From: Geotalea uraniireducens Rf4
GTDB lineage: Bacteria; Desulfobacterota; Desulfuromonadia; Geobacterales; Geobacteraceae
Reading direction: 5' to 3'
Assembly (NCBI RefSeq): GCF_000016745.1
Contig: NC_009483.1
Location: 2,070,001 to 2,102,000 of the forward strand
Length of the DNA stretch: 32,000 bases
A model generated the notes under the pieces. That model searched no databases. It was not told where the DNA came from and saw only the letters and a program-made list of their open reading frames with translations. Made by a program: the position numbers and the translations under genes. Each line of letters starts with the position of its first letter. The stretch's first letter is position 1. Shown here one piece after another: positions 4,186 to 32,000 of this stretch.

Positions 4186-4251
4186 TCTGCACTCCTTAAG
4201 TTTCCTCCGCGACTGTCGATATGAAAATTAATGCCACTAGAGGTGAATGCC

Positions 4252-5148
4252 ATGCGACGGTTAACGAAAAAACTCAATCACAGAACGATCTGCACAATCG
4301 TGCTGATGGCAACCGGAAGTCTTCTCTGGTGGTGTCTGTCCGGTTATCTCGGCGGAGCACGACTGCAGGTTGCGCTCTTGATAGCTGCAGGGATGGTTCC
4401 CCTGTTTTTCGTTTTTACCCGTCTGGAACGCATCGCAACCATGCGCCTCGTGGAAAAAAACTGGGCACTGGCCGGTGAAAACGTCCGATTGATGGAGTCG
4501 CTCGACGAAATAGAGGAGCGGTTCGTTGTTTCACTCAGATCCATAGCCGAAACTGTTGACGCCCATGACGTTTATGCAAACGGCCATTCGAAGCGTGTTG
4601 CCAATGTGGCGGTGAAAATCGGCAAGAAGCTGAATATGTCGGAAAAAGAATTGAATTCTTTGGAAACTGCCGCATTGTTTCACGATATCGGCATGATCTG
4701 GGTGCCGCACTATATACTGATGAAGGAACAGCCGCTGACTGCGGATGAACAGGCAGCGATCAGGAGGCACACGGTTCAGGGCGCCGAATTGCTTGACTCC
4801 GCCAAGTCTCTGAAAGATGAGGGGATTGCCGTTCTTCACCATCACGAAAGATTCGACGGCACCGGTTATCCTTACGGTCTTAAAGGGCTTGCCATCCCTC
4901 TGGCTGCCAGAGTTCTCGCCGTTGCCGATGCGTTCGATGCCATGACATCGGAGCGCCCTTACCGTTGTGCGCTGCTCATGCGTGAAGCCCTTGAAGAGCT
5001 TTATTCAAACGCGGGGGGGCAGTTTGATCCGCATGTTGTGGAAGCTTTCCTTAATGCACTGGATGACATTACCCGTGAGAATGAAACGGTAAGGCCGGAA
5101 ACTATGCGATTCGGAGCCCGATTGTACAGCATGGTCGGCAACTGTTGA
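4252..5148 (+). CDS. Membrane-anchored HD-GYP domain cyclic-dinucleotide phosphodiesterase
   Basis: ATG at 4252 with GAGGTG 6 nt upstream. Two N-terminal hydrophobic segments. HD motif (ALFHDIGM) and HHERFDGTGYPYGL (HD-GYP signature). Confidence 0.85.
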   Translation: MRRLTKKLNHRTICTIVLMATGSLLWWCLSGYLGGARLQVALLIAAGMVPLFFVFTRLERIATMRLVEKNWALAGENVRLMESLDEIEERFVVSLRSIAETVDAHDVYANGHSKRVANVAVKIGKKLNMSEKELNSLETAALFHDIGMIWVPHYILMKEQPLTADEQAAIRRHTVQGAELLDSAKSLKDEGIAVLHHHERFDGTGYPYGLKGLAIPLAARVLAVADAFDAMTSERPYRCALLMREALEELYSNAGGQFDPHVVEAFLNALDDITRENETVRPETMRFGARLYSMVGNC

Positions 5149-15190: not shown

Positions 15191-15221
15191 GGGGCAGGTA
15201 TAAGACCCCCCGAGGTATTTG

Positions 15222-16013
15222 ATGTTATCTGTTTTTCCGTTCTACTTTTTTGCCTTTATCTTCGGAGCACTGGTCGGCTCTTTCCTCAATGTCTGTATTT
15301 ATCGGCTGCCGAAAGATGAGTCGGTGGTGTTTCCACCATCCCATTGCCCGAAATGCGATTACAGGATTCGCTTTTATGACAACATTCCCGTCGTCAGCTA
15401 CCTGTTGCTGGGGGGGAAGTGCCGCTCCTGCAAGACCCACATTTCACTTCAATATCCGGCTGTGGAGCTGATAAACGGTTTATTGACCCTGTTCCTCTTC
15501 ATAAAATTCGGAATCACCTGGTCATTCCTCTTCCTGTTCCTGTTTTGCTCAGCCCTTGTCGTCATTACCTTCATCGATCTGGAGCACCAGATAATTCCCG
15601 ATGTGATCAGCCTGCCAGGCATCGTCATCGGCTTTGCCGCATCCTTTCTCCTCCCCTGGCTTGGGTGGAAAAACTCCCTGATCGGAATTTTAATAGGCGG
15701 CGGCAGCCTGCTGATTGTGGCCTACGGCTACCAGTTTCTCACCAAAAAAGAAGGTATGGGCGGCGGTGACATCAAGCTCCTGGCCATGATGGGGGCGTTC
15801 CTCGGCTGGCGGTCTGTGCCGTTCATAATTTTTGTCGCTTCGCTGGTCGGCTCGATCATCGGCATCACCCTCATGGTGGTGCAAAAAAAGGATTCAAAGC
15901 TGGCTATCCCCTTCGGGCCTTTTCTTGCCATCAGTGCGATTCTTTACATCTTCTTCGGCAAGGAGATAATCTGGTGGTATCTTTCGCTGGCCGGCAGCAG
16001 CCCCGGGGGCTAG
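15222..16013 (+). CDS. pilD: Prepilin peptidase / N-methyltransferase PilD (A24 family)
   Basis: ATG at 15222 with GAGG 6 nt upstream. Zn-type cysteine pairs CPKC...CRSC. Catalytic Asp regions FIDLEHQIIPD and GMGGGDIKLLAMMGAFLGW. Confidence 0.92.
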   Translation: MLSVFPFYFFAFIFGALVGSFLNVCIYRLPKDESVVFPPSHCPKCDYRIRFYDNIPVVSYLLLGGKCRSCKTHISLQYPAVELINGLLTLFLFIKFGITWSFLFLFLFCSALVVITFIDLEHQIIPDVISLPGIVIGFAASFLLPWLGWKNSLIGILIGGGSLLIVAYGYQFLTKKEGMGGGDIKLLAMMGAFLGWRSVPFIIFVASLVGSIIGITLMVVQKKDSKLAIPFGPFLAISAILYIFFGKEIIWWYLSLAGSSPGG

Positions 16014-16020
16014 CGTCCGC

Positions 16021-17607
16021 ATGAAGCATTTTCGCGTTTCCCTCACCTTTTCCATTCTCTCCTCGCTCGCCTGCCTGCTGGTCCTTACCTGGGTTCTGCT
16101 CAGTCTCATTTCGTTCAAAACTGCTGAAAAAGATCTCCTGGCCCAGAAGAACGAGGAAGCACGCGTGCTCCTTTCTGCATTTGCGGAAATCGCTCAGGCC
16201 TCGCTGAATCGCATAAACGAAGAATCATCGACTAAAATACTGACCGCGAGACTTGCCCGGGAGAAGGACTTTGCCGGCATTACGGTCATGGATGGGGCTG
16301 GGAAGGCGGTCTATGTCATAGCAGATGCCAGAGGTACAGATGCGACTCTTCAGGCGACATTGAAGAAGGGCAAGGAGTCGTTTGCTTTCACCCCGGACGG
16401 CAAATATATTTTACGATACGCGCCGCTTTACCGGGGAGATACCGTCATCGGCGCGGCCCGCCTGTCGCTCTCACTGGCAAAGGAGCAGGAACGGCTCAAA
16501 GGCTCGCGCCACCTGTTCCTGGCCTATTTTGTCCTCGATTTTCTGCTGTTGCTCGGTTTCGGTTCGTTCATGCTGTCACGGATCGTCGTTGTGCCGATCA
16601 GGAAGCTCCTCGCCGCAACCAAGAGGATTGCCTCAGGCGATTACGGTCATAGCGTACATGTGCCGGGGAGTGCCGAAATAGCCGAGCTCTCTGAATCATT
16701 CAACACGATGGCGGAAGGGTTGGAGAAGAAGCGGGCAGAGGTAGAGCAGACGGTCGATTCTCTGGAACGGGCCAACAAAGCATTGCAGGCTGCCCGTGAA
16801 GAGGCGGTCCGCTCGGAGAAGATGGCTTCCGTCGGTTTGCTGGCCGCGGGAATGGCCCATGAGATCGGCACCCCTCTTTCCGCCATCATCGGCTATGCGG
16901 GAATACTCAGGGACGAGCTTCAGGATGACGCAATCAAAGCCGATTATCTGCGCCGCATTGAAGCCGAATCAGGCCGGATTGACAGGATTGTCCGTGGCCT
17001 GCTCGATTATGCCCGTCCTACGGACGTTCATTGTGAACTTATGGATATATCCGGGCTTCTGACTGAAACAGTTGATCTTCTTGGCGCGCAGGGGGTTTTG
17101 AAGCAGATAACTACCTCGTTGATTCTGGATGATAATTTGCCGCGGGTATTTGTCGATCCGCACCAGTTGCAGCAGGTACTTATCAACCTTATCATCAATG
17201 CGAGGGACGCCATAAAGCAGGGGGGGGAGCTTGAAGTGGCTGCTCGTGCCGGAAAGGCGGAAATGCTTTTTGTCCAGTCTACCTCTGCTCCGGTTTCTGT
17301 CATGGGGAGGCGCAAGGATGATTTTCACGGCGCATTCAGTTATTCCTACCTTAACAGTAGAGACGTTGCCTGCTGGCTGGCCATAGCTGTAAGGGACAAC
17401 GGAGAGGGAATTGCCGCTGAAAACCTGGGAAAGATCTTCGATCCTTTTTTCACGACCAAGGAACCGGGGAAGGGGACCGGGCTCGGGCTTGCCATTTCCG
17501 CCAGGATAATAGATTCTTTCGGCGGCCGGATCATTGCCGAAAGCGAACCGGGAAATGGATCGGTATTGACCATCTGGCTCCCGGTTTTGAAGGATAAGGA
17601 AAGGTGA
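16021..17607 (+). CDS. Sensor histidine kinase (TM - extracytoplasmic domain - TM - HAMP - HisKA - HATPase)
   Basis: H-box AAGMAHEIGTPLSAI. N-box LINLIINARDAI. G-boxes RDNGEGI and GKGTGLGLAIS. Two hydrophobic segments bracket about 150 aa. Lies 8 nt after pilD. Confidence 0.9.
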   Translation: MKHFRVSLTFSILSSLACLLVLTWVLLSLISFKTAEKDLLAQKNEEARVLLSAFAEIAQASLNRINEESSTKILTARLAREKDFAGITVMDGAGKAVYVIADARGTDATLQATLKKGKESFAFTPDGKYILRYAPLYRGDTVIGAARLSLSLAKEQERLKGSRHLFLAYFVLDFLLLLGFGSFMLSRIVVVPIRKLLAATKRIASGDYGHSVHVPGSAEIAELSESFNTMAEGLEKKRAEVEQTVDSLERANKALQAAREEAVRSEKMASVGLLAAGMAHEIGTPLSAIIGYAGILRDELQDDAIKADYLRRIEAESGRIDRIVRGLLDYARPTDVHCELMDISGLLTETVDLLGAQGVLKQITTSLILDDNLPRVFVDPHQLQQVLINLIINARDAIKQGGELEVAARAGKAEMLFVQSTSAPVSVMGRRKDDFHGAFSYSYLNSRDVACWLAIAVRDNGEGIAAENLGKIFDPFFTTKEPGKGTGLGLAISARIIDSFGGRIIAESEPGNGSVLTIWLPVLKDKER

Positions 17608-17610
17608 AAA

Positions 17611-18990
17611 GTGAAAAAAAACGCTGACAATAAGAGCATCCTCGTAGTAGACGATGAGGAAAATCTGCGTCATATGCTTCATGTCATGCTCCAGAAGCAG
17701 GGATATCACGTCGAACTGGCAGTTGAGGGCGCTGAGGCCTTGCGGATGGCTGCACAGAAGGATTATGATTTTATTCTCTGCGACATCAAGATGCCGGTTC
17801 TGGACGGGGTCGGTTTCTTGAAAGGTGCAAACGCAGCAGGCATCAAAAGCACCGTCATCATGATGTCGGCCTATGGTACGGTGGACAGCGCGATCGAGTG
17901 CATGAAGCTGGGGGCGTATGATTATATATCCAAACCCTTTAAAAGTGATGAGATAGGACTGGTCCTGAGAAAGGCGGAAGAGCGGGAAAGACTGAAGGCG
18001 GAGAACAAGCGGCTCAAAGAGGAGATAAACAGGGAATTTTCCTTTGCCAATATAGTCAGTAAAAACGAGCGAATGCATGAAATATTCAACCTTGTTCAGA
18101 AGGTCTGCGATTACAAGACAACGGTACTGATTCTCGGCGAATCAGGGACAGGTAAAGAACTGATAGCCAGGGCTCTTCATTATAACAGCAGGCGCAAAAA
18201 CGCCACGTTTGTTGCGATCAACTGTGCGGCGATACCGGAAAACCTGCTGGAGTCAGAACTGTTCGGGCACATGAAGGGTGCCTTTACCGACGCTTCTTCT
18301 GATAAGGCAGGCCTGTTCGAGCAGGCGAACGGCGGGACCCTGTTTCTGGACGAGATCGGCGAGATGCCCCTTGCTTTGCAGGTGAAACTTTTGCGCGTAT
18401 TGCAGGATGAAGAAATCAGGGTGGTGGGGGGAACTGTAACGAAGAAGATCGATGTGCGGGTGATTTCCGCCACTTCGAAGCACTTGGAACAGGAAATCGC
18501 GGCAGAACGCTTTCGGGAAGACCTCTATTTCAGGCTGAATGTCTTCAGTCTCACCCTGCCGCCGTTGCGCGAAAGGCAAGAGGATATTCCCCTGCTTGCT
18601 GCCCATTTCATCGAAAAATACGGGCGGAAAATGGCTAAACACGTGGCGTGCTATACTCCCGAAGCCCTCAAGTTGCTTATGGACTACAGCTGGCCGGGGA
18701 ATGTCCGGGAACTGGAAAACTGCATCGAGAGGGGACTGGTCCTGTGCGAGGGAGAAGCGCTGGATGTGGAGTGTCTGCCGGAAAAACTGCGGAGCATGGA
18801 TGGCAGGGGACGGGGGGCGGGGATGGCCTTCGACGGCTTTTCAATAAAGCGCGCCGAAGAAAGTCTCGAAAGGGCGCTGATCAGAAAGGCGCTCGATGAA
18901 ACCGGCGGCAACAGGACCCATGCGGCAAGGTTGTTGGAGATAAGCCACCGGGCGCTTTTGTACAAAATCAAGGAGTACGGGATGGAATAA
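17611..18990 (+). CDS. Sigma54-dependent response regulator (NtrC/PilR family: REC + AAA+ + Fis-type HTH)
   Basis: GTG start 3 nt after the kinase stop. Receiver D (ILCDIKMP). Walker [15 protein letters not shown]-type loop (KGAFTDA). Walker [10 protein letters not shown]-terminal [27 protein letters not shown]. Confidence 0.92.
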
Positions 18991-19968: not shown

Positions 19969-20040
19969 TGTTTTTTCCCTTCCGATATTAATTGTCGTGT
20001 TGAGGTTTTAACCAAGATAAACCATCAAGGGGTGGATGCA

Positions 20041-23000
20041 ATGAACAACGTTAATTTCGTCAACAGGAAAATCCTCCGGTATTTATTGCCGTTGCTGCTC
20101 ATCATTCCGTGGCTACTGGCATCGGTTCAGCCGGCATCTGCTGAAAAGGTTGAGGTTACGGTTGAGTGGGGGAGTAACGCCGCGGGCGATAACGATAACG
20201 GCGGCTACGTAACGCCTCCCGGCAATGGTGATTCAGGAAAAGATGTAAAGGTTACAACCAATACTAACAAGACGTTTACCATCTTCACCGATTCCGGTTT
20301 CCAGATCTCGGATGTGAGATTGATAAACAAGGATTCCGGCACCAACCAGTCGGTTTTCACCCCTGTGAACATGCTTGGTGCAGGCGATACCTACACGTTC
20401 AACGTGGGGACTAGTGACTGGATACTGCGGGTTTTCTTTATACCCAAAACGGGGTCGAATGTAACCATAACTGCAACCGCCGGGGCCAACGGCTCCATTT
20501 CTCCATCCGGAGCGATCAGTGTCGCAAGAAATGGCAGCAAAACCTTCACCATGACCCCCAACGCCGGCTACATTATAGGCGATGTGCTGGTGGATGGTAT
20601 ATCGGTGGGCGCCGTCAGCTCTTACACCTTCCCCAATGTGACAATCGATCATACCATTTCCGTTTCATTTGTTCCACAAGCCTATACCATTACCGCGACT
20701 GCCGGCGCCAACGGTGTGATCTCACCGGCCGGCGCCACCAATGTGGCCAAAAACGCCGATCAGACGTTCAATATCATCCCGAATGCCGGTTATAACGTTT
20801 TGGATGTGAAAATTGACGGCACATCGGTCGGGGCAAGGACCTCCTATACCTTCACCAACGTCACCGCCAACCATACCATAAACGTAACCTTTGCCCTCCA
20901 GACCACTTCGATGGGGAACTATTGCCAGCAACCCTCCTTTATCGGCTCCATCACCCAATTGAAGCCCAATGTTCTGATCCTGTCCGATAACTCGGGCAGC
21001 ATGGGGTGGCTTGCATACGAGAGTGAAACGTATAACAATGCAAAGAGCTATTACGGCTATTTCGATCCCCAGAAAATGTATAAGAATTCGGGCACCGTTT
21101 TTACGATCGACACCACAAAAATACTCGACAAGAACGACATAATGTCGGGTAACTACTTGAACTGGCAAATGATGCGACGGATCGACGTCGTCAGGAAGGC
21201 GTTGATTGGGGGCAAGGTTGTAAATCGGACGGCTGCCACCAAATATTTGTCGGCTAATGGCGGCTTTACGGTTGAATACGGCCCCACGGAACCGACGGGA
21301 ATTATCCAGGCCCTAGACGGTAAGGTGAGATTCGGCCTGATGTTTTTCCGCTCCAATTACGAGGGAGGGTATATTGCTGCGCCTATCGGTTCCACTGCCG
21401 CCGACCTGGTCACACAGATAGAAGCCAAGAACCCCAGCGGCAACACCCCACTGGCAGAGTCGATCTACGAGGCGACCAAGTATTTCGGCCATGTTGCAAG
21501 CGCTTATGACGCAGCGGTTGATTACTCCACATGGGCGGACCCGATCCTGTACCCGTGCCAGAAAAACTTCATGTTGGTCGTCACCGACGGCGAGCCGACT
21601 GCTGACATCAACTTCCCAGGTTTTGACACAACCACCTGGAAGAATAAGATCACTGCCAATGGCGACACCCACAGCCCGTATTTCATGGAGGATGTTGCCT
21701 ACTACGCCCATGTCACCGACTTGCGACCCGACACCGGCACCGTCGGCAATCCCCCCATCGCTGCGGGCGGCATTCAGAACCTGACTATTTACAACGTTTT
21801 CGTCTTCGGTAGTGCAGCCAGCAAAACTATGCAACTGGCGGCAAAATACGGAGGATTTCAGGACAAGAACGAAAACGGAAAGCCTGACCTGGCAATTGAG
21901 TGGAACAAATCCGGCGACGGTGTGCCTGACACCTATTTTGAGGCGCAGGAAGGTGACAGCCTGGAGACCTCGCTGATGGATGCCTTGACGAATATACTGG
22001 CACGCATATCCTCCGGTACGGCGGCTTCCATCCTCAGCAACAGCGAGGGGACAGGAGCCAATCTATTGCAGGCGTTATTCTATCCCAACAAGATCTTTGA
22101 AAAGCAGACCCAGGCCAATTGGCTCGGCGAAATGCAGAACCTCTGGTATTACATCGATCCCTTTTTCACTAACAGCTCAGTGCGGGAAGACACTGATTAT
22201 ACCGATGCAGACAGGGCAGTAAATAAAAATCATGTGTTTAATCTCCTTGCTGACAAGGCAACCAACTTTTTCTTCGACAATGCTGCGACGAAACAGACAC
22301 TAGTAGATCTTTCCTATGACACAAATGGAGACGGCGCTCCCGATCTCTTTGACAAGCGAGTCACCCCTGACGAAGTGAACAGTATTTGGCGGGCGGGTAA
22401 ACAATTGTGGTCAAGGGACCTTTCAACTAACCCGAGAAAGATATATACGACTATTGACGGCAGCACGCTTGTTCCCTTTGTTGAAACGGCCGGAGCCAAT
22501 CCTCTTCGCGCTTATTTGCAGGCAGCAACCGATGCGGAGGCAAATAAAATAATCAGATATGTACAGGGCTTTGATTTCCCCGACGACACCTCGATGCGAA
22601 GCAGAACGGTCAAGATCGGCAATATTCCGTCAACAAACGTTACTGATCCTGCCTATAAGACCAATCCAAAGGATAAAGGCATCGGAGTCTGGAAGTTGGG
22701 TGATATTGTCAATTCTACGCCGCGACTGGTTTCGGCGCTCCCTCTGAACTTCTACGACAAAGCGCCTGATAAAGGTTATCGCGATAAATCGTACGGTGAT
22801 TCCAAGAATGGAACGGGTTATATTTATACGTCTGATTACAAGCGTAGAGGACTGTCGCTTGCCGGCGCCAATGACGGCATGCTGCATGCTTTCAAACTCG
22901 GCACACTCGATGTAACCGCCTATGGAGATACCAAAGCGACCCTGTCCGGAACAAATCTCGGTGATGAGCTGTGGGCGTATGTCCCGAAAAATGTGTTGCC

Positions 23001-24489
23001 GTACCTCAAGTACTTCTCGGATCCGGACTATTGTCATCTCTGTTATGTTGACATTTCCCCATATATTGTCGATGCCAGCATTGCAAAGCCGGCAGCGTGT
23101 ATGGAAGCGAAGGCCGAGGATTGCACAAAAGATTTAACCAGCTGGCGAACCGTAGTCATCGGGGGGATGGGACAAGGAGGTGCCAGCAGGGATAAAGCGG
23201 GAACCTGCAAAGATGCTACCGGCGTGGATTGCGTAAAATCGCCCCTCGACGGTGTCGGCTTTTCGTCATACTATGCTCTGGATATTACCAAGCAGTTCGT
23301 TTCATCGGGAAACCCGGTAATGCCGACCCTCCTCTGGGAATTTGCGCATCCGGAACTCGGATATTCGACATCCGGGCCGGTAGTGATGCGGATCAATGGA
23401 AAGGATAATTCAAAATCTCCACCGGTGCCTGACCCAACCAAAAATGGCAATTGGTATGCTGTATTTGCTTCCGGCCCCACCGGCCCGATTTCCGGTCAAC
23501 AATTCTTGGGGAAGTCCGATCAGAATCTCAAGCTATTTGTACTTAATCTGAAGACCGGCGCGCTGTTGCGAGTTATCGATACCGGCATTCCGTTTGCTTT
23601 CTCCGGATCTTTGAATGACGGGCATTCCGATACTGACAGAGTTGATCCGGAGAATCGGGGTTTTTATTCGGATGATGCACTCTACATCGGGTACACAAAA
23701 AGGGCTGGTGCAGGTACTGTTGCCAGCCCCTATACGTGGACAGACGGTGGGGTAGTACGGCTTTTGACAAAGGAAGACCCGGACCCGAACAACTGGACTG
23801 TAAGCAAGGTCATCGATGGTATCGGGCCGGTTACTACCCGAATTTCAAAACTTCAGGATAAAATTGACAACATCCTATGGCTCTTCTTCGGCACCGGCCG
23901 TTATTACTACGGCGCAGACGATATTGCCGTACAGCGCACCCTCTTCGGGGTGAAGGATCCGTGCTTCAAGGCAGTAGTCACTCATCTCGATGGCACCGTC
24001 TCCAAGAAAGGAGACATTGACGAGGCTTGCACCGAGGCGCCGGTTACCAAGTCGAGCCTCGATATCCAGACGAACATCTCGGCCACATCCCTGACAAGCA
24101 AAGGCTGGTACATTGAGCTTGATGCGGCCAGTGGGGGCTATGGAGCGGAGAGAATAATAACCGATACCGTGGCGCAGCAAAACGGTCTCTGCTTCTTCAC
24201 GAGTTTCAAGCCGAACATGGATGTCTGTTCCTTTGGCGGCAGTTCACATCTGTGGGTTGTGGACTGCGCGACCGGAACCGCACCTAAGGTCAACGCCCTG
24301 AAAGGCAGGGCGCTGATCCAGGTCTCTACGGGGAGCTTCGAGTCCGTTGACTTTGGAACCGCCCTTATTGAAAGAGGCAACAGGCGATCTGCGCCAATGA
24401 TAGGGAAACCGCCCGGCGAACCGCCGACTATCCAATCCCAGGCAAATAACAAACCGGTTAAGAAGATTCTCCGCATACGGGAGAAATAA
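20041..24489 (+). CDS. pilY1: PilY1-like T4P tip adhesin: signal peptide, three InlB-B-type repeats, vWA domain, PilY1 beta-propeller
   Basis: ATG at 20041 after AAGGGG. The track start 20032 is GTG. MIDAS motif LILSDNSGSM. VVTDGEPT. PilY1/PilC hallmarks WKLGDIVNSTPRLV and GANDGMLHAF. Confidence 0.85.
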   Translation: MNNVNFVNRKILRYLLPLLLIIPWLLASVQPASAEKVEVTVEWGSNAAGDNDNGGYVTPPGNGDSGKDVKVTTNTNKTFTIFTDSGFQISDVRLINKDSGTNQSVFTPVNMLGAGDTYTFNVGTSDWILRVFFIPKTGSNVTITATAGANGSISPSGAISVARNGSKTFTMTPNAGYIIGDVLVDGISVGAVSSYTFPNVTIDHTISVSFVPQAYTITATAGANGVISPAGATNVAKNADQTFNIIPNAGYNVLDVKIDGTSVGARTSYTFTNVTANHTINVTFALQTTSMGNYCQQPSFIGSITQLKPNVLILSDNSGSMGWLAYESETYNNAKSYYGYFDPQKMYKNSGTVFTIDTTKILDKNDIMSGNYLNWQMMRRIDVVRKALIGGKVVNRTAATKYLSANGGFTVEYGPTEPTGIIQALDGKVRFGLMFFRSNYEGGYIAAPIGSTAADLVTQIEAKNPSGNTPLAESIYEATKYFGHVASAYDAAVDYSTWADPILYPCQKNFMLVVTDGEPTADINFPGFDTTTWKNKITANGDTHSPYFMEDVAYYAHVTDLRPDTGTVGNPPIAAGGIQNLTIYNVFVFGSAASKTMQLAAKYGGFQDKNENGKPDLAIEWNKSGDGVPDTYFEAQEGDSLETSLMDALTNILARISSGTAASILSNSEGTGANLLQALFYPNKIFEKQTQANWLGEMQNLWYYIDPFFTNSSVREDTDYTDADRAVNKNHVFNLLADKATNFFFDNAATKQTLVDLSYDTNGDGAPDLFDKRVTPDEVNSIWRAGKQLWSRDLSTNPRKIYTTIDGSTLVPFVETAGANPLRAYLQAATDAEANKIIRYVQGFDFPDDTSMRSRTVKIGNIPSTNVTDPAYKTNPKDKGIGVWKLGDIVNSTPRLVSALPLNFYDKAPDKGYRDKSYGDSKNGTGYIYTSDYKRRGLSLAGANDGMLHAFKLGTLDVTAYGDTKATLSGTNLGDELWAYVPKNVLPYLKYFSDPDYCHLCYVDISPYIVDASIAKPAACMEAKAEDCTKDLTSWRTVVIGGMGQGGASRDKAGTCKDATGVDCVKSPLDGVGFSSYYALDITKQFVSSGNPVMPTLLWEFAHPELGYSTSGPVVMRINGKDNSKSPPVPDPTKNGNWYAVFASGPTGPISGQQFLGKSDQNLKLFVLNLKTGALLRVIDTGIPFAFSGSLNDGHSDTDRVDPENRGFYSDDALYIGYTKRAGAGTVASPYTWTDGGVVRLLTKEDPDPNNWTVSKVIDGIGPVTTRISKLQDKIDNILWLFFGTGRYYYGADDIAVQRTLFGVKDPCFKAVVTHLDGTVSKKGDIDEACTEAPVTKSSLDIQTNISATSLTSKGWYIELDAASGGYGAERIITDTVAQQNGLCFFTSFKPNMDVCSFGGSSHLWVVDCATGTAPKVNALKGRALIQVSTGSFESVDFGTALIERGNRRSAPMIGKPPGEPPTIQSQANNKPVKKILRIREK
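20461..20901 (+). repeat. Tandem duplicated coding module of about 220 nt (two InlB-B-like repeats) inside pilY1
   Basis: 20461-20679 (VTITATAGANGSISPSGAISVARNGSKTFTMTPNAGYIIGDVLVDGISVGAVSSYTFPNVTIDHTISVSF) and 20680-20901 (AYTITATAGANGVISPAGATNVAKNADQTFNIIPNAGYNVLDVKIDGTSVGARTSYTFTNVTANHTINVTF). A degenerate third copy lies at about 20146-20448. Confidence 0.8.
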
Positions 24490-24490
24490 C

Positions 24491-24970
24491 ATGAAACAGG
24501 ACGGTTTTTCATTGATTGAGCTTATCGTCGTCATCGGGATATCCGCTGTTCTCATGGCTATTGCCATGCTTAATTTCAACCAGATGATGAGAAAGTCTGC
24601 GATCGACAGTCAGGTAAAAATGCTGTATTCCGAACTCTTGAACACCAGGGTACAGGCGAGGTTCCAAAAGGAGGCACGTCGGGTCGGACTTAACAGTAAC
24701 AAGGTTATCCTGTATTCGCCGGATTTAACTAAGTCGCCGGATGTCCAGAGAGACTTATCCTCTCCGATCGAATGGGGCGGCGCATCGGATATTCTCTTTG
24801 ACACACAAGGCCTGACAAATGCCCCTGCCACCGGCAGCAAGAGTATCTGTATACAGGGGGATAATCCTGCTACTTACGATAGTATAGTGGTTTTCAAGAC
24901 AAGGATTCAGATGGGAAAAAGAACGAATCCTCTAGGAGGGTGCACCATTGATAATATCGTTACTCAATAA
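24491..24970 (+). CDS. Minor pilin, FimT/GspH-like
   Basis: Prepilin leader and methylation motif MKQDG/FSLIELIVV (G-1, F+1, E+5). Starts 1 nt after the pilY1 stop. Confidence 0.75.
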   Translation: MKQDGFSLIELIVVIGISAVLMAIAMLNFNQMMRKSAIDSQVKMLYSELLNTRVQARFQKEARRVGLNSNKVILYSPDLTKSPDVQRDLSSPIEWGGASDILFDTQGLTNAPATGSKSICIQGDNPATYDSIVVFKTRIQMGKRTNPLGGCTIDNIVTQ

Positions 24971-25328
24971 TAAAGGGTTTACTCTTGTTGAAATGATGTT
25001 TGCCATAATGATATCGCTTCTCGGCATATTTGCACTGTTGCAGTCCATGGATGTAATCACGCAGCACAATGTCAAGAATCAGATGCGTGACGAGGCAGTG
25101 AAGATTGCCGATGTCAGGCTGAAGTCAATGCGGGAAGGCCCTTTTGTCGAGAATATTGTATATATTCCGTACAGCACCGTTCATAACGAATCGGGTGTTC
25201 GCTCTTATGTCGTGAGAAAGTCAATGACTGCGTTGTCAGTCAATTCAAGGGAACTTATTGTCAACGTTGGGTGGGCTTATAAAAACATTTCATCTCACCA
25301 CGAGGTGCGGACCATTAAATCAAGATGA
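24948..25328 (+). CDS. pilV: Minor pilin PilV-like
   Basis: TTG start at 24948 with AGGAGG (24934-24939) 8 nt upstream. Motif NNKG/FTLVEMMFAIMISLLGIFALLQS. Overlaps the preceding gene by 23 nt. Confidence 0.75.
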   Translation: MIISLLNNKGFTLVEMMFAIMISLLGIFALLQSMDVITQHNVKNQMRDEAVKIADVRLKSMREGPFVENIVYIPYSTVHNESGVRSYVVRKSMTALSVNSRELIVNVGWAYKNISSHHEVRTIKSR

Positions 25329-25386
25329 GCATGGACTCAATCAAGCCATTTTGCCAACCTCAGCGAATGGCATCAAGGACGGGGTT

Positions 25387-26634
25387 ATGTCGGATAAAAA
25401 AGGTTTTACACTCATAGAACTGGTTGTGACGATGGCCATATTTGTCATCGTCATCATGCTAAGCTCATTTGTTTTCGAGAAGGTGATCGGTCAGGCAAGC
25501 CAGCGCTCCAAAACCATTGAGGGTCAGCTTGAAGGTGTCGTAGGCCTGGAAATATTGAGGACCGACCTGGATAGCGCCGGTTATGGGCTTCCGTTTAAAA
25601 TTATGTCTTCGGCTACAAAAATATCCGGTTACACCGAAGCGGTGGACTCCCCGAACTTTCCGGTTCCCGGTGTTGATAGGGCTAGTCTCAACGACGCGCC
25701 CGCCACGTCGCCTAGAGGCGTTGTGAGCGTAAACGGAAGCGGTAGCGTTGGTTTCAATCAATCTGATTATCTGGTGATAAAATCGGTAACTGTTGCCTTG
25801 AATGATACCTCGAAAAAATCGAGTCGTGTCACTTACAACAAAATAGGCACGGATCCCTTCGGTAAGATTGCGGTAACCGGAACCGATGACCTGCAACCGG
25901 ACGAAAGAGCCATCGTCATGAGATCCACTTTTGAGGGTGGCATAGAGAAGAAAAGAGAACTTTTGATAGACGAGAAGAACGGCGGCACCTTTTTTGTTAC
26001 GGTTCCGTCGACTTTTCTCCCGACTGCGTTTTCGCCCCTGACAACAGATGATACGTGTCTGATTTACGGGATAGATCCGGCCAATGGGTCACCACTGCGC
26101 ATGCCTTTCAATCGGGCAGATTATTTCGTCAAAAGGCCGGCTAATGTTCCTAAAATTTGCAATGCCGGCACAGGCGTTTTATACAAGGCCACGACTAATC
26201 ACAATAATGGTGGTATCACCTATTATCCATTGGTTGATTGCATAGGAGACATGCAAGTGATCTATCTCCTCGACATGGACGAGGATAGTGCCGCCGGGAC
26301 ATACTCCAACGCCGACGGTAGCCAGATATCGCCGCTGGGAGACCCCGAGAAAGTTGACGGCGTGAATGTCTCAATTTCCGATGTGGTGGCAACCTTGCAC
26401 GATCCCGAGTTGCTCAGACTCAGACTCAAGGAGATCCAGGTGTACGTCCTTGCCCAAATGGGCAAAAGGGATAATGTCTTAAATTATCCTAATGACGACA
26501 TAGTCGTAGGAAAACCGGAAGCGGTAGGTAGAAAGTGGTCAGCAAGTGATATGGCAGGCACCTTTGGCGCCGAATGGCGTAACTACCGATGGAAAGTGTA
26601 CAAAATCACATCCAATGCCAGTAATATGCAGTGA
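25387..26634 (+). CDS. pilW: Minor pilin PilW-like
   Basis: ATG at 25387. MSDKKG/FTLIELVVTMAIFVIVIM prepilin motif. 415 aa. The track ORF start 25258 lies upstream and has no pilin leader logic. Confidence 0.65.
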   Translation: MSDKKGFTLIELVVTMAIFVIVIMLSSFVFEKVIGQASQRSKTIEGQLEGVVGLEILRTDLDSAGYGLPFKIMSSATKISGYTEAVDSPNFPVPGVDRASLNDAPATSPRGVVSVNGSGSVGFNQSDYLVIKSVTVALNDTSKKSSRVTYNKIGTDPFGKIAVTGTDDLQPDERAIVMRSTFEGGIEKKRELLIDEKNGGTFFVTVPSTFLPTAFSPLTTDDTCLIYGIDPANGSPLRMPFNRADYFVKRPANVPKICNAGTGVLYKATTNHNNGGITYYPLVDCIGDMQVIYLLDMDEDSAAGTYSNADGSQISPLGDPEKVDGVNVSISDVVATLHDPELLRLRLKEIQVYVLAQMGKRDNVLNYPNDDIVVGKPEAVGRKWSASDMAGTFGAEWRNYRWKVYKITSNASNMQ

Positions 26635-26660
26635 CCAGAAAAAGAAATGGGCGGTGTCAA

Positions 26661-27284
26661 ATGAGATATCTGAAAAATCAAAACGGAATAGCATTGGTAA
26701 CTGCGCTGTTGCTTACCCTGATAACTGTTGCGGTTATTATGGCTGTATTTTATCTGCTTAACCAGCAGACAAAGACATCCGCAGCAGAGAAGGTCTACAG
26801 CTCCGCCCTGCAGGCTGCCTATGGCGATTCCGAGCTTTTTATTAAAGACATTATCCCGTCATTATTTCCCAACGATGCTCTTAAAAATATTAATTACTGG
26901 GAAAACAGCTTTTCTGCAATATCTTTGGACGTCGTTGCGACGGATGCCTGTATAAATGACAAACTGCACAATAACACCGATAAATGGACAAATTGTCCCC
27001 AGGGCAGTACAACGAAACTTGCTTACGATATGCCGGACACGACTATTGTACTTAGGGGGCTCAGCGAAAATTACAAGATATATTCAAAAATTGTCGATAC
27101 GACCGTAGGCAATACCGACGGGTCAGGACTAACGGAAAGATATACCTCTGGCGACGGCGTAACCGGAAAGGGGGCCGGAGTGGACCCAGTACGTGTTCCT
27201 TATCTCTACACCGTCGAGATTCAAGCGGAAGGGGCAGTTAATCCCAAGGAAAAGGCCCAGCTTGAGGTACTTTATGCGTATTGA
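26661..27284 (+). CDS. pilX: PilX-like minor pilin / pilus assembly protein
   Basis: MRYLKNQNGIALVTALLLTLITVAVIMAVFYLL resembles the PilX N-terminal domain. The alternative GTG start at 26631 overlaps the pilW stop. Confidence 0.6.
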   Translation: MRYLKNQNGIALVTALLLTLITVAVIMAVFYLLNQQTKTSAAEKVYSSALQAAYGDSELFIKDIIPSLFPNDALKNINYWENSFSAISLDVVATDACINDKLHNNTDKWTNCPQGSTTKLAYDMPDTTIVLRGLSENYKIYSKIVDTTVGNTDGSGLTERYTSGDGVTGKGAGVDPVRVPYLYTVEIQAEGAVNPKEKAQLEVLYAY

Positions 27285-27317
27285 ATGTTGTTTCTGATGT
27301 TTGGTTCACCTATGAAT

Positions 27318-27333
27318 TGGTTCCAAAATTGCA
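27318..27333 (+). promoter_or_regulatory. Candidate sigma54 (-24/-12) promoter
   Basis: TGGTTCC-AAAA-TTGCA. GG (27319-27320) and GC (27331-27332) are separated by exactly 10 nt, as in TGGCACG-N4-TTGCW. There are three mismatches in the -24 element. Confidence 0.45.
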
Positions 27334-27371
27334 GGTTTTAATTGCTTTAACAAATTGCATCCATAGATAAC

Positions 27372-27448
27372 GATAATACTAAACCATCCGCGAGGATGGG
27401 GCGGAAAGCCTATAGGGTCTCACGCAGACAGCCGGGTTGCCGAAATAT
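27372..27448 (+). promoter_or_regulatory. GEMM-I cyclic-dinucleotide riboswitch aptamer (c-di-GMP / 3',3'-cGAMP class)
   Basis: AAACC-ATCC-GCGA-GGAT-GGGGCGGAAAGCC ... CAGCCGGGTTGCCGAAA matches the conserved GEMM-I core. For comparison, Vc2 from memory is AAACC-AUUC-GAAA-GAGU-GGGACGCAAAGCC ... UAGCGGGGUUACCGAUGG. GNRA-capped hairpin at 27384-27399. Confidence 0.8.
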
Positions 27449-27477
27449 CACAATATTTCCGGCGCCCGGTTTTTTTT
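27432..27477 (+). terminator. Intrinsic terminator (riboswitch expression platform)
   Basis: ccggg-tt-gccg-aaatat (27432-27448) pairs with atattt-c-cggc-g-cccgg (27453-27469), giving about 15 bp with a 4-nt loop, then T8 (27470-27477). The 5' arm is the conserved 3' strand of the aptamer. Confidence 0.85.
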
Positions 27478-27480
27478 ATT

Positions 27481-27571
27481 TTGTTAACTAAAAATATAAA
27501 AGACTATAATTTTATATAATTTAACATAATTAGCGTTATTTGCTTGACAATTCTTTTATTTATTGTAATTT
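27481..27571 (+). promoter_or_regulatory. AT-rich region with candidate sigma70 promoters
   Basis: TTGTTA (27481-27486), N18, TATAAT (27505-27510). A second TATAAT at 27515-27520. TTGACA (27544-27549), N16, TAATTT (27566-27571). Pattern matches in very AT-rich DNA, so specificity is low. Confidence 0.35.
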
Positions 27572-27602
27572 CAACAAAAAATAAGTAAAAGCAGGTAAAA
27601 GA

Positions 27603-27803
27603 ATGACAGCAAATAACAATGTCAGAAACATTCGTGAAGAGCGATTGATGAGTAAGGCTGAACTCGCGCGGTTAGCTGGTGTCTCGCCAGTTACGATTGA
27701 TCGCATAGAGCGTGGCGAAGAGTGCCGCATGGAAACTAAAAGGAAAATCATTCTGGCTCTTGGTTTTTCTTTGTCTGAGAAGGAAAAAGTATTTCAGGAC
27801 TAA
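27603..27803 (+). CDS. Small XRE-family helix-turn-helix protein (66 aa)
   Basis: HTH_3-like core LMSKAELARLAGVSPVTIDRIERGEE. Ends 21 nt upstream of pilM. Confidence 0.8.
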   Translation: MTANNNVRNIREERLMSKAELARLAGVSPVTIDRIERGEECRMETKRKIILALGFSLSEKEKVFQD

Positions 27804-27824: not shown

Positions 27825-28877
27825 ATGTTTCTCTCAAAAAAGAAAGATTTAGTTGGTATCGATATCGGCTCCAGTTCTGTAAAGCTTGTGCAGCTTAAGG
27901 AGCAAAAGGGGGTGTTTCATCTGCAGAATGTCGGAATACTCCCTCTGCCTGCAGAGGCCATTGTCGATAACAGCCTTATGGATAGCTCTTCCATCGTGGA
28001 AGCCGTGAAAAATCTCTTTAAAAGTCTGAATATAAAGGCAAAAGAGGCGGTCTGCTCCATATCTGGCAATTCGGTTATCATCAGGAAAATATCCTTGCCC
28101 GTCATGCCTGTTGAAGAGCTTGAAGATCAAATACACTGGGAGGCTGAACAGTATATACCCTTTGATATCAACGACGTAAATATCGATTTTCAGATTTTGT
28201 CTGCTGACGAACTTGATCCGTCAAAAATGAACGTCCTGCTTGTTGCCAGTAAAAAAGACATAATAAACGATTATCTTGCGGTATTTAATGAAGCCGGCAT
28301 CAAGCTGATGGTTGTGGATGTGGATTCATTTGCGGTGCAGAACGCCTTCGAGCTCAACTACGATTTCGATTTTGAAGAGGTCTCGGCGCTTGTAAATATA
28401 GGTGCCAGCATCATGAATCTGAACATTGTGAAAGGGGGCATTTCTCTCTTTACCCGCGATGTTCAAATAGGTGGCAATCTTTACAACGAAGAGATTCAAA
28501 AGCAATTCGGAATGAACAACGAAGATGCCGAAAGAACTAAAATTTCCGGGGATTCTCCTGATAAAACCAGGCTCAAGGACATTATTTCACGTATAAACGA
28601 TACCCTTTCCCTGGAGATGCGCAGGTCTCTGGACTTTTACAATTCAACGGCAGGCGAAGGGAAAATAAGCAAGGTGTATCTCAGTGGTGGCGGTGCAAAA
28701 ACAACGATGCTGCTGGATTCTGTGAGCCAGAAACTTGATTTACCTGTAGAAATACTTAATCCGTTTTTAAAGATCAGATACAATGAAAAAGAGTTTGATC
28801 CAGAGTATCTTCAAGAGATAGGTCCTCTTGTGACTGTTGCTATAGGGCTGGCGACAAGGAGGCTTGGAGATAAATGA
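27825..28877 (+). CDS. pilM: T4P assembly ATPase-fold protein PilM
   Basis: 350 aa. N-terminus LVGIDIGSSSVKLVQL. Actin-like fold motifs (VVDVDSFA, YLSGGGAK). Confidence 0.93.
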   Translation: MFLSKKKDLVGIDIGSSSVKLVQLKEQKGVFHLQNVGILPLPAEAIVDNSLMDSSSIVEAVKNLFKSLNIKAKEAVCSISGNSVIIRKISLPVMPVEELEDQIHWEAEQYIPFDINDVNIDFQILSADELDPSKMNVLLVASKKDIINDYLAVFNEAGIKLMVVDVDSFAVQNAFELNYDFDFEEVSALVNIGASIMNLNIVKGGISLFTRDVQIGGNLYNEEIQKQFGMNNEDAERTKISGDSPDKTRLKDIISRINDTLSLEMRRSLDFYNSTAGEGKISKVYLSGGGAKTTMLLDSVSQKLDLPVEILNPFLKIRYNEKEFDPEYLQEIGPLVTVAIGLATRRLGDK

Positions 28878-29449
28878 TAAAGATCAATTTACTGCCGGTC
28901 AGGGCTTCTAAAAAGAAGGAAACCACCAGACAACAGATTTCTATTCTTATAATCTCTGTCATTGGCGTTCTTGTTGTCGGTCTTAGCCTGTATAGTTTAA
29001 CCCTTGCAAAAATCAGTGCGACTAAGGATGAAGTCAGTAAGTCTGAGCAGGAGATTCAACAACTAAAAGCCAAGATTGGTCAGATTGATAATATCAAAAA
29101 GCTCCAGGCAGAAGTAAAGAAGAAACTCGACGTACTCAATCAATTAAGAAAAGAAAAGAGCGGTCCGGCCAGCAGGTTGGCAAAGCTGAGCGATGCTGTG
29201 CCGGAGAAGCTTTGGCTCACTAAATATACTGAAAATGCAGGTAATGTTTCAATTTCCGGCATAGCATTCAGTGAAGACCTTATTGCTGAATTTATGCGCA
29301 ATCTTCAGGCGTCAGATGATTTCTCCAATATTGATCTTCAGGTATCAGAACAGTCTGAAATTTCTGGAACAAAAGTAAAGAAGTTCGATATTACTTTTAT
29401 TCTTAAGGGATTGAAGAAGGAAGAGCCGGCAAAACCTGGCAGTAAATAA
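28874..29449 (+). CDS. pilN: T4P assembly protein PilN
   Basis: ATGA overlap with the pilM stop. MIKINLLPVR signature, single TM, coiled coil. Confidence 0.85.
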   Translation: MIKINLLPVRASKKKETTRQQISILIISVIGVLVVGLSLYSLTLAKISATKDEVSKSEQEIQQLKAKIGQIDNIKKLQAEVKKKLDVLNQLRKEKSGPASRLAKLSDAVPEKLWLTKYTENAGNVSISGIAFSEDLIAEFMRNLQASDDFSNIDLQVSEQSEISGTKVKKFDITFILKGLKKEEPAKPGSK

Positions 29450-29489: not shown

Positions 29490-30089
29490 ATGGACCCACA
29501 AATAGAAAAAATATTAAAGCTTCCTACCAAACAAAAAGTAGCATTGTTGATTCTTGTTCTGGCATTGGAAGGCCTTGGCATTTTCTTTGGCTTGTATCAA
29601 CCCAAGATGAATGAACTTAAAGGATTTCAAGCAAAGCTTGAGGAACTGCAAAAAAAGATCACAGAAGATAAAAAAGTTGCTGACAATATTTCAAAATATA
29701 AAAAAGAATACGATCAATTGCAAAATGAATTGAAGACCGCCCTCACCGAGTTGCCCAATCAGAAAGAAATACCTTCACTTTTAACCAGTATAACAAGTGC
29801 GGGTAAAAGTGCCGGACTCGATTTTCTTCTGTTTAAACCAAAGCCCGAGGAATCCAAGGACTTTTATGCTGCTGTTCCTGTCGACATTTCCGTTTCCGGT
29901 TCTTTTTATAACATTGCCGACTTTTTTGTCTCAGTAGCCAATCTCCCCCGCATCGTAAATATAAACAATGTAAATTTTGCGGATATAAAAAACGTTAACG
30001 GCCGGACGACGTTAAAAGTCAATTGCCTTGCCACTACCTTCCGCTTCATTGACAAGAAAGAGATAAAAGATGAAAAGAAAGGAAAATAG
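29490..30089 (+). CDS. pilO: T4P assembly protein PilO
   Basis: Position between pilN and pilP. TM segment VALLILVLALEGLGIFFGL followed by a coiled coil and a ferredoxin-like C-terminal part (VPVDISVSGSFYNIADFF). Confidence 0.8.
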   Translation: MDPQIEKILKLPTKQKVALLILVLALEGLGIFFGLYQPKMNELKGFQAKLEELQKKITEDKKVADNISKYKKEYDQLQNELKTALTELPNQKEIPSLLTSITSAGKSAGLDFLLFKPKPEESKDFYAAVPVDISVSGSFYNIADFFVSVANLPRIVNINNVNFADIKNVNGRTTLKVNCLATTFRFIDKKEIKDEKKGK

Positions 30090-30621
30090 ATTACGTGTAA
30101 TTACTCTGCTTTTTATTGTGTCCGGGCTGGTATTTATTGGATGCAAAAAGAAAGAAGATATTACTGTGCAGCAGGCGGCGCAACCAAAAGTTGCAACAAA
30201 GCCAAATGTGCCTGTGCAGAAACAGCCTTCATCAGCTAAAGGCACTGCTTCAGGTGTCATGAATTATGACTTCAAAAATAAAAAAGATCCTTTTAAGGCT
30301 TTCTTGATGCCGACTGAGCCGTCTGCGTCCAAAGCAAAGACGGTTAAAGCAAGAACATCAGAACTCTTGCCGATACAAAATTATGATGTTAGCAAGTTCA
30401 CCGTTTCCGGGATAATTACCGGGCTTAAGGAAAACAAAGCTTTAATAATAGACCCGACCGGCAAGGGATATGTCGTCAGACAGGGGATGCTGATCGGAAA
30501 TAACGATGGTCGCATCACCAGGATATCACCGTCGTCTATCGAAATTTCTGAACAGTTCCGTGACGATAGCGGTCATGTAAAGAAAAGAAAAATTGTGCTG
30601 CCACTGGCCAAGAAAAAGTAA
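30070..30621 (+). CDS. pilP: T4P assembly lipoprotein PilP
   Basis: Lipobox LVFIGC. Overlaps pilO by 20 nt. C-terminal beta-domain motif (FTVSGIITG...ALIIDPTGKGYVVRQGMLIG). Confidence 0.75.
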   Translation: MKRKENRLRVITLLFIVSGLVFIGCKKKEDITVQQAAQPKVATKPNVPVQKQPSSAKGTASGVMNYDFKNKKDPFKAFLMPTEPSASKAKTVKARTSELLPIQNYDVSKFTVSGIITGLKENKALIIDPTGKGYVVRQGMLIGNNDGRITRISPSSIEISEQFRDDSGHVKKRKIVLPLAKKK

Positions 30622-30633
30622 GGAGATTTCCAG

Positions 30634-32000
30634 ATGAGAATGTATTCAAGCAGAATCATTTGCCATGCACTGATACTCATCTTTATCATGGCTGTTTCTG
30701 GTTGTGCAAAAAGAATGGTAGCGGCAAAAGATGTGAACCAGATTGAAACGGCAGGTGTCGCTGCTGTTCAGGCAATCAATGTTAAAGACGACACCTCTCA
30801 GATAGAAATTTCCACTAACCGGCCGTTAACATATACATCCTATAAGACAAGTGATCCGCCGAAGGTTTTTATCGACCTTGCTCAGACGGAACCGGGTGCA
30901 GTGACCAAGCCGTTAGAGTTCGCTTCAGGCAATGTAAAAAGTGTCAATTTGTCCAGGCAGGATTTTGGCGGTGGTTTTCTCACACGTGTTGAGATCGCAC
31001 TGAATAAAGACGTGGATTTTTCAGTAAGCACAGATCCAGCGGATCGGGGCAAATTGCTGGTTACTTTCGCTAAACCCCAGGTTGAAGAAAAGTCGTCCAA
31101 AGCCGAGGTTGAAAAGCAGGGGCAGGTAGCGTCAAATGTCGAGGAAAATGCAGCCAAACCCGATGTGAAGCCGGAAACGAAATCTCTGAACGCGGAAATG
31201 TATAAACAGGCCGCTGCTGAAGTGGCTGCCGGAGTAAATGTTGTAACCCATGAGACGAAGCCGGAAGTTGTTGCCGAGGTCAAGGAAGGAGCCAAGATTG
31301 CCACGCCGGGGTCTAATCCTGTCGAACTACAGACAAGCGTCGAAGTAAAAGAGCCACCCAAGGCCGAAGCAGAGGTTAAATCTGAAATTGCTCCACAGTT
31401 AAAGACGTTAGATGCCATCAACATAGTGAACGATGGGGTTGAAATTATCGTGAATGGTGGCGTGGACTCCTTTAACACATTCAAGTTGAACAAGCCGGAC
31501 CGTCTGGTTGTGGATATTTTTGGCGCTAAGAATTCGATCTCTGCAAATTTTATAAGTATCAACCGTTTTGGCGTCGGTAAAGCCAGAGTCGGCGTAACAC
31601 CGGAAAAGGTACGTATCGTCTTTGACGCGGCCGCTGAAGCGCTCCCTGCTTACGAAGTGGCAAAGACTGACAATGGTTTAAAGATACATTTGTCTGATAT
31701 ATCCGCAGAGCAGCCAGCAAAGAACGTCAACGAGCCTCTCGACGAGCCGGCAAAGCCGGCATCTGAAGCAAAAAAAGTCGTAAAGACTGAAACAGGTTCG
31801 ATAGAGTCGATTGACTTTAATGTCGTGGATGGAAACTCCAGGATTGCCATAAAGCTTAACGGAGACTGTATTTCAGGTAAGCCGATTAAGACAGCCAAAG
31901 GTCTGTCGTTTACAATCAAGAATTGTCGGATTCCGAAAAAACTTCAGAGAACGCTGGACACGAGAGGTTTTGCAGGCCCAGTCCAAAGCATTACTCCTTA
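30634..32000 (+). CDS. pilQ: T4P secretin PilQ, N-terminal part with three AMIN domains; 3' end outside the window
   Basis: This ORF is not in the supplied track. I translated frame 1 from ATG 30634 (RBS AGGAG 30621-30625) to position 32000 and found no stop. Lipobox MAVSGC. AMIN-like modules at about 30766-31068, 31408-31692 and 31801-32000, separated by K/E/P-rich linkers. Confidence 0.85.
   Translation, partial: MRMYSSRIICHALILIFIMAVSGCAKRMVAAKDVNQIETAGVAAVQAINVKDDTSQIEISTNRPLTYTSYKTSDPPKVFIDLAQTEPGAVTKPLEFASGNVKSVNLSRQDFGGGFLTRVEIALNKDVDFSVSTDPADRGKLLVTFAKPQVEEKSSKAEVEKQGQVASNVEENAAKPDVKPETKSLNAEMYKQAAAEVAAGVNVVTHETKPEVVAEVKEGAKIATPGSNPVELQTSVEVKEPPKAEAEVKSEIAPQLKTLDAINIVNDGVEIIVNGGVDSFNTFKLNKPDRLVVDIFGAKNSISANFISINRFGVGKARVGVTPEKVRIVFDAAAEALPAYEVAKTDNGLKIHLSDISAEQPAKNVNEPLDEPAKPASEAKKVVKTETGSIESIDFNVVDGNSRIAIKLNGDCISGKPIKTAKGLSFTIKNCRIPKKLQRTLDTRGFAGPVQSITP

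Follow-up and report, generated by a model that had tools for sequence, protein, structure and literature searches.

The Geobacteraceae are a group with a known cGAMP pathway, and the association of cGAMP riboswitches with pilM has reportedly been in the literature since 2015. In GEMM-I aptamers, the specificity position is A in the cGAMP class and G in the c-di-GMP class. In Vc2, adenine A47 intercalates between both ligand bases and cytosine C92 forms a Watson-Crick pair with the ligand G; Vc2 is thought to act on translation.

The closest described system is the G. metallireducens 'pilM riboswitch', which Landgraf et al. (2022) presented as a cGAMP-responsive transcriptional ON switch with mutually exclusive aptamer and terminator folds (PMC9262584). 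Transcripts of 77–101 nt were binding-competent (KD down to 0.25 µM by ITC) and C75 was sequestered by G102 in the terminator; binding was measured in that study and cotranscriptional folding was modelled (PMC9262584). The Gm0970 aptamer (Kellenberger et al., 2015) is cited as showing ~1600-fold selectivity for cGAMP with a KD of ~16 nM (PMC8835794), and the substitution A20G turned the Gmet_0970 riboswitch c-di-GMP-selective (PMC6456294). Gm0970 and the G. metallireducens pilM riboswitch are probably one RNA, on the circumstantial ground that Gmet0972 is listed as predicted to be activated by cGAMP (PMC12285248). In the G. sulfurreducens aptamer Gs1761, A14 replaces G20 of Vc2 and pairs with the A of cGAMP (PMC6140456). 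Hallberg et al. (2019) found GEMM-Ib riboswitches ahead of genes for cytochromes, pilus assembly and polysaccharides in most Geobacter species, and reported that deletion of the cGAMP synthase gene gacA in G. sulfurreducens lowered expression of the regulator and pilMNOP genes 2–3 fold (PMC6456294).

We examined a candidate riboswitch in a 32-kb stretch of DNA (hereafter the window), for which a preliminary description had proposed a GEMM-I element with an overlapping terminator. Judged by its sequence and its place before the same operon, this element is the ortholog of a published, biophysically characterised riboswitch, and as such is already known. Its parts are as follows.

27366–27449, + strand: GEMM-Ib aptamer, assigned by the RF01051 match, pairing in orthologs and 90% identity to the G. 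metallireducens pilM riboswitch
G27366-C27449, A27367-U27448, U27368-A27447 and A27369-U27446, + strand: P1 (GAUA/UAUC), kept in relatives
C27371-G27442 and G27372-C27441, + strand: inner pairs of P1, from covariance-model alignments and the pair check
Between the P1 5' strand and A27378, + strand: linker of five nucleotides, from the model alignment
27373–27380, + strand: ATAATACT, which is free of G, read in the sequence
A27378, + strand: A at the Vc2 G20-equivalent, the specificity nucleotide, from covariance-model alignments with two clan models
C27379-G27404 and U27380-G27403, + strand: 2-bp helix, from the model alignment
27381–27385, + strand: AAACC, read in the sequence
27384–27389 with 27394–27399, + strand: P2, capped by a GCGA loop (GNRA), from the model alignment
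27384–27399, + strand: CCATCC-GCGA-GGATGG hairpin, read in the sequence
27400–27410, + strand: GGCGGAAAGCC, read in the sequence
A27405, + strand: A47-equivalent, invariant in orthologs and aligned by the model as the first A to follow the GG that closes the 2-bp helix
27407–27419 with 27427–27438, + strand: P3, from the model alignment
27429–27445, + strand: CAGCCGGGTTGCCGAAA, read in the sequence
G27439 followed by C27440, + strand: the two nucleotides 3' of P3, from the model alignment
C27440, + strand: C92-equivalent, the ligand-pairing cytosine by model alignment, paired with G27462 in the terminator fold
27430–27471 (hairpin) and 27470–27477 (U8), + strand: intrinsic terminator, from folding

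The element is a member of the GEMM-I (c-di-GMP-I) class. With curated thresholds, a search of all 4227 Rfam families over the complete 32-kb window returned RF01051 (c-di-GMP-I) as the sole family over threshold. The match, at + strand positions 27368–27444, scored 47.5 bits (gathering score 35; E = 1.8e-6) and was full-length, covering model positions 1–87 of 87. The preliminary description had recognized the GEMM-I core by comparison with Vc2, and the significant covariance-model match bears this out; the motifs it listed (AAACC, the GNRA hairpin, T8 and the G-free 8 nt) are all present at their given positions. Its interval of 27372–27477 was right at the 3' end and began too late at the 5' end, as P1 reaches G27366-C27449 and the element spans 27366–27477. 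In a permissive Rfam scan of 27200–27650, families outside the GEMM clan gave chance-level matches only (snoRNA and miRNA models far below their thresholds). The variant family c-di-GMP-I-GGC (RF03167) scored 47.8 bits in the same scan, under its gathering score of 59, and was rejected.

The model alignments also place the specificity nucleotide, which had been left between A27378 and C27379: A27378 fills the column directly 5' of the 2-bp helix, which is the Vc2 G20 column (Vc2 numbering counted by hand), and this rules out C27379 as the position-20 equivalent. The G20 column held A and the C92 column held C in every complete ortholog (25 of 25 each), and no G20 (c-di-GMP-type) version was found at the orthologous sites examined. 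A27405 and C27440 lie in the A47 and C92 columns of the Vc2 model and were invariant in 25 orthologs. By its A27378 signature the element is assigned to the GEMM-Ib (3',3'-cGAMP) subclass, in line with the class suspected beforehand, and 3',3'-cGAMP is most likely the ligand of the window RNA by analogy with its relatives; this preference would follow from 90% identity to the cGAMP-binding G. metallireducens pilM RNA together with the Gm0970 data. No Hypr GGDEF cGAMP synthase (GacA-like) is encoded within the 32-kb window.

Aligned with the supplementary sequence of the G. metallireducens pilM riboswitch, the window RNA was 90% identical over 89 aligned columns, which begin with P1 and extend into the terminator loop. 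Both elements stand upstream of a small regulator and pilM, and both carry the specificity A, the ligand-pairing C (C75, corresponding to C27440) and an aptamer 3' strand that doubles as the 5' arm of the terminator. They differ by nine substitutions, of which one leaves an A-A mismatch in P1 (U-A in G. metallireducens), P2, P3 and the junctions take one each and others lie in the P3 loop, and the terminator loop of the window element is shorter (22 nt from the ligand-pairing C to its terminator partner, as opposed to 27 nt). The G. sulfurreducens GEMM-Ib elements (Gs1761/pgcA, PDB 4YAZ, and the regulator-pilMNOP leader) share with the window element the A in place of G20 and the antitermination logic, although Gs1761 controls a cytochrome gene and has a much larger effect (10-fold). 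The window element also fits the theme of the G. sulfurreducens GEMM-Ib regulon, which places pili, cytochromes and surface functions under GacA-made cGAMP (PMC6456294). Vc2 and the RF01051 class at large have the same fold as the window element, with a GNRA-capped P2, P3, the intercalating A and the Watson-Crick C; Vc2 differs in carrying G20 and sensing c-di-GMP, where the window element has A and a transcription terminator.

The terminator hairpin contains 18 pairs (8+4+6) with an unpaired U27438 and a bulged C27459, and folds at -23.2 kcal/mol (z = -4.7; 0 of 200 shuffles equally stable). A built-in terminator scan missed this real terminator because of its bulged stem and gave only the reverse strand of P2, so folding was used instead. 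The preliminary description had correctly drawn the 5' arm from the aptamer 3' strand and ended the hairpin in T8, and had undercounted the stem at 15 bp (about 18 here). The 5' arm consists of the P3 3' strand, C27440 (paired with G27462) and the P1 3' strand, so that aptamer and terminator exclude each other, as had been proposed, and this sharing of stem nucleotides, including C27440, makes the element in model terms a transcriptional ON (antitermination) design. The earlier reading of an ON switch agrees with this shared strand and with the same logic described for the 90%-identical G. metallireducens pilM riboswitch (PMC9262584), and ligand-dependent read-through is predicted by analogy. 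For the leader 27345–27480, the minimum-energy fold was the terminator form at -41.5 kcal/mol, compared with -18.2 kcal/mol when the aptamer pairs were enforced. With the terminator fold far more stable on the full leader, the default state would be OFF and the ligand would have to act during transcription.

We then compared the element across relatives recovered in a PilM scan of 185,579 species genomes. The nearest PilM (93% identical) came from a Geobacter sp. MAG and the next matches from Geotalea, Geomobilimonas, Geomonas and others, which places the window in the Geobacteraceae. Of the first 20 loci, 7 gave an Rfam match to the aptamer upstream of pilM, and a sequence model search found the element in 25 of 80 pilM loci plus one partial copy; this model was built from two sequences without structure and is adequate for close orthologs, and a recheck of its negatives with Rfam gave 0 matches in 40 loci. 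Nearly all copies begin 350–580 nt upstream of pilM, the exception being L062 at about 1.7 kb. In this locus (L062:1407–3000), a 290-aa transposase-like ORF lies between the riboswitch terminator and the XRE gene, and the switch stands ~1.6 kb from the operon. In 79 of 81 loci the XRE gene stands directly before pilM. A + strand frame of ~210–260 codons ends 66–321 nt upstream of the element in most orthologous loci (counted from the conserved ATACT at 27376).

Over 25 distinct orthologs, the 20 aptamer pairs were paired in 96.5% of 487 cells (slid controls, 30–50%). Four pairs changed on both sides, with compensatory changes in P1 and P2; covariation is modest because the clade is narrow. All 24 orthologs folded over the full terminator formed the terminator hairpin on the aptamer 3' strand; L045 and L056, where an internal T-run shortened the fold, stand outside these 24. 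The terminator 3' arm covaries with the aptamer strand (GGGUUGCC/GGCAACC, GGGUCGCC/GGCGACCC and GGGAUGCC/GGCAUCCC). The aptamer pair A27407-U27438 becomes A-C in 10 sequences, and the column tracks its terminator partner instead, which argues that the expression platform constrains column 27438.

A pseudo-riboswitch in L061 (2440–2595) retains the aptamer 3' half and the terminator intact while the 5' half (ACUAAACC, P2) has decayed, which should result in constitutive termination. Six Geomonas loci (L008, L015, L018, L020, L023 and L024; ~2550–2600) have no aptamer and carry a plain terminator right after the stop of the minor-pilin operon, with a 5' arm (GCGGGTTGCTGAAA) identical to the aptamer 3' strand (GCCGGGTTGCCGAAA) at ~13 of 15 positions by eye. 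This terminator may be a riboswitch relic, or an ancestral terminator that underlies the aptamer. Together, the Geomonas terminators and L061 suggest a second role for the hairpin in ending the minor-pilin operon, and loss of the aptamer in some lineages. The second-closest relative (L002; PilM 82% identical) has no riboswitch within 3 kb upstream of pilM. Across the family, presence is patchy, with both closer and more distant relatives than L002 carrying the riboswitch.

The genes and promoter-like features around the switch are listed below.

20032–27284, + strand: upstream co-directional operon of a 1485-aa protein (PilY1 position) and four minor-pilin-like genes, from N_methyl/PilW matches and the ORF list
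27318–27333, + strand: candidate sigma-54 (-24/-12) promoter motif TGGttccaaaaTTGCA, an exact TGG-N8-TTGCA match
27523–27571, + strand: promoter-like block (P2 block) between the terminator and the XRE gene, with a putative promoter function
27523–27534, + strand: AT-rich palindrome-like element within this block, consensus ATATAATTATAT, from the locus alignment
27544–27549, + strand: -35 TTGACA, from the locus alignment
27566–27571, + strand: -10-like TAATTT, 16 nt past TTGACA, from the locus alignment
27603–27803, + strand: first downstream gene, an XRE/Cro-type helix-turn-helix protein of 66 aa (Pfam HTH_3, E = 1.9e-9)
27825–28877, + strand: pilM (Pfam PilM_2, 1.5e-85)
28874–29449, + strand: pilN (Pfam PilN, 2.4e-22)
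29490–30089, + strand: pilO (Pfam PilO, 7e-51)
30070–30621, + strand: pilP (Pfam PilP, 2.7e-15)
30634–32000, + strand: 5' part of the gene at the pilQ position (Pfam AMIN, 2.2e-29), which runs off the window before the secretin domain

From gene order, we infer that the AMIN-domain gene is PilQ. The minor-pilin operon stops 82 nt before the aptamer, and the ORF list and terminator scan revealed no terminator between its stop at 27284 and the aptamer. Two of its proteins, of 1485 aa (20032–24489) and 217 aa (26631–27284, the last gene of the operon), had no Pfam or NCBIfam match. The 1485-aa protein starts with repeated Ig-like segments of about 75 aa each.

The sigma-54-like motif at 27318–27333 would start the riboswitch leader near 27345. 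A single match to TGG-N8-TTGCA is unremarkable, as 1.4 are expected by chance per 32-kb window. In 12 of 23 orthologous loci, GG-N8-NTGC[AT] occurred no more than 170 nt before the aptamer, where shuffles gave a mean of 0.8 and a maximum of 4 and the reverse strand gave 3, and 5 further loci had a sigma-70-type TTGAC-N17/18-TAnnn[T/G] instead; these loci are related and the counts are not independent. Directly upstream of the window aptamer, no convincing sigma-70 promoter could be placed by eye, and the best candidate there is the sigma-54-type motif. In many species, sigma-54-type promoters seem to feed the switch. At 15219–18990, just upstream of the pilus gene block, the window encodes a prepilin peptidase (PilD), a HAMP histidine kinase and a sigma-54-dependent response regulator. 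This regulator (17611–18990) is a candidate activator for the 27318–27333 motif.

Downstream of the switch, the promoter-like block aligned in ~79 Geobacteraceae pilM loci, with or without the riboswitch, ~60–110 nt upstream of the XRE start and better conserved than the terminator. Its consensus across loci runs from the palindrome through about 8 nt to TTGACA, then 16 nt to TAAATT, with TTGAC nearly invariant, and an exact TTGACA lay within ~130 nt of the XRE start in 58 of 79 loci, with or without riboswitch. This conserved block is probably an independent promoter with an operator, the latter perhaps for the XRE protein itself. The element had been placed directly upstream of XRE-pilMNOPQ; it is upstream, and not directly so, since 125 nt holding the promoter-like block separate the U-run from the XRE start codon. 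Likewise, the proposal that pilMNOPQ and the regulator are under second-messenger control at the RNA level stands, with the amendment that control is probably only partial given a promoter-like block downstream of the switch. Because this block is conserved independently of the riboswitch, the switch probably acts only on transcripts that arrive from upstream, and partial gating fits the modest published 2–3 fold effect in G. sulfurreducens (PMC6456294).

The best explanation for this locus, to which we assign a probability of about 0.88, is that the 'pilM' GEMM-Ib riboswitch of the Geobacteraceae is present here as a transcriptional ON switch, with 3',3'-cGAMP as its most likely ligand. The family, the specificity A, the overlap of terminator and aptamer, the conservation and covariation, and the synteny were computed here; cGAMP binding and selectivity, ON behaviour and the 2–3 fold effect are carried over from orthologs. 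RNA polymerase would arrive from a near-upstream promoter (sigma-54-like here) or from the adjoining minor-pilin operon and transcribe 27366–27449. If cGAMP were captured during the ~20 nt of transcription that precede emergence of the downstream terminator arm, P1 and P3 would stay closed, the 27430–27471 hairpin would be blocked and transcription would run on into XRE-pilMNOPQ. Without ligand, the more stable terminator fold would win and transcription would stop at U8 (27470–27477). Given the riboswitch-independent promoter-like block, the switch would then provide a cGAMP-dependent increment over basal expression and not the sole control; both promoters and this additive logic are putative readings of the motifs and their conservation.

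Two alternatives concern whether and to what the RNA responds. It is improbable, in our estimate, that the aptamer senses c-di-GMP, or both c-di-GMP and cGAMP, such that the pilus-assembly genes answer to c-di-GMP as in classical GEMM-I systems. The matched Rfam family is named c-di-GMP-I, and an A at position 20 is necessary for cGAMP selectivity without guaranteeing it: both dinucleotides are bound by Vc2 G20A and by the natural aptamer Cbe 1-2, and c-di-GMP can bind A20 aptamers via a protonated adenine (PMC6140456). In addition, Gmet0972 rose in a high-c-di-GMP, low-cGAMP strain of G. metallireducens (PMC12285248), which favors c-di-GMP sensing and, since the rise came at low cGAMP, implies that inputs other than cGAMP act on the operon. 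Against this, all 25 orthologs have A and not G in the specificity column, the nine differences from the cGAMP-binding G. metallireducens pilM RNA spare A27378, A27405 and C27440, and the Gm0970 aptamer strongly prefers cGAMP (~1600-fold) and requires A20G to favor c-di-GMP (PMC8835794, PMC6456294). It is more improbable still, to the point of being hardly credible, that in this genome the element is a relic in decay, without any regulatory function. Absence from 54 of 80 related pilM loci (a few of whose contigs end less than ~500 nt upstream of pilM) and visible degradation in one further locus, L061, are what such decay would produce, yet the window copy matches at full length over the gathering score with every ligand-contacting position intact, pairing is maintained at 96.5% with compensatory changes, and the terminator arm co-evolves with the aptamer strand.

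The remaining alternative leaves the cGAMP switch in place and differs over the transcripts that reach it. The hairpin and U8 may be mainly the ordinary terminator of the minor-pilin operon, with the aptamer acting as a conditional coupler that joins the minor-pilin/PilY1 operon to XRE-pilMNOPQ in the presence of ligand, in place of a leader with a dedicated promoter. We regard this as possible and on the doubtful side. The lack of any other terminator from the stop at 27284 to the aptamer, the conserved co-directional upstream operon, the riboswitch-free Geomonas loci whose plain terminator follows the same stop with a 5' arm (GCGGGTTGCTGAAA) resembling the aptamer 3' strand, and L061, which keeps its terminator beside a decayed aptamer 5' half, all speak for such coupling, whereas 17 of 23 loci have promoter-like motifs in the interval from the upstream stop to the aptamer, and the length of this interval varies from 66 to 321 nt. 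The coupling and dedicated-promoter readings are moreover compatible, as both sources of transcript meet the same switch. Returning to the cGAMP ON switch, we tentatively propose, at somewhat under even odds, that it is not the 5' leader belonging to the main promoter of the operon and forms a separate upstream module, driven by sigma-54 with an enhancer-binding protein and gated by cGAMP, from which read-through would cross a riboswitch-independent sigma-70 promoter with a palindromic operator; the hairpin would also end the minor-pilin operon, and Geomonas and L061 would have kept the terminator only. If this were so, the pilus alignment and secretin genes would be fully induced only by two signals together (activator phosphorylation and cGAMP), and read-through would either supplement an autoregulated basal promoter or interfere with it.

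The assignment is of use chiefly as correct annotation: it counts XRE-pilMNOPQ in this Geobacteraceae genome among the operons of the cGAMP (GacA) regulon, the one that controls surface-associated metal respiration in Geobacter. To the known system our analysis adds a putative independent promoter downstream, apparent sigma-54-type feeding, and presence in about one third of pilM loci with apparent relics elsewhere; these architectural points are refinements of a known system and no new kind of system. An independent downstream promoter would account for the small in vivo effect on pilMNOP. Elsewhere in the window and unrelated to the riboswitch, a 417-aa RCC1-repeat protein (2871–4124) adjoins an HD-domain (HD_5) protein (4231–5148).
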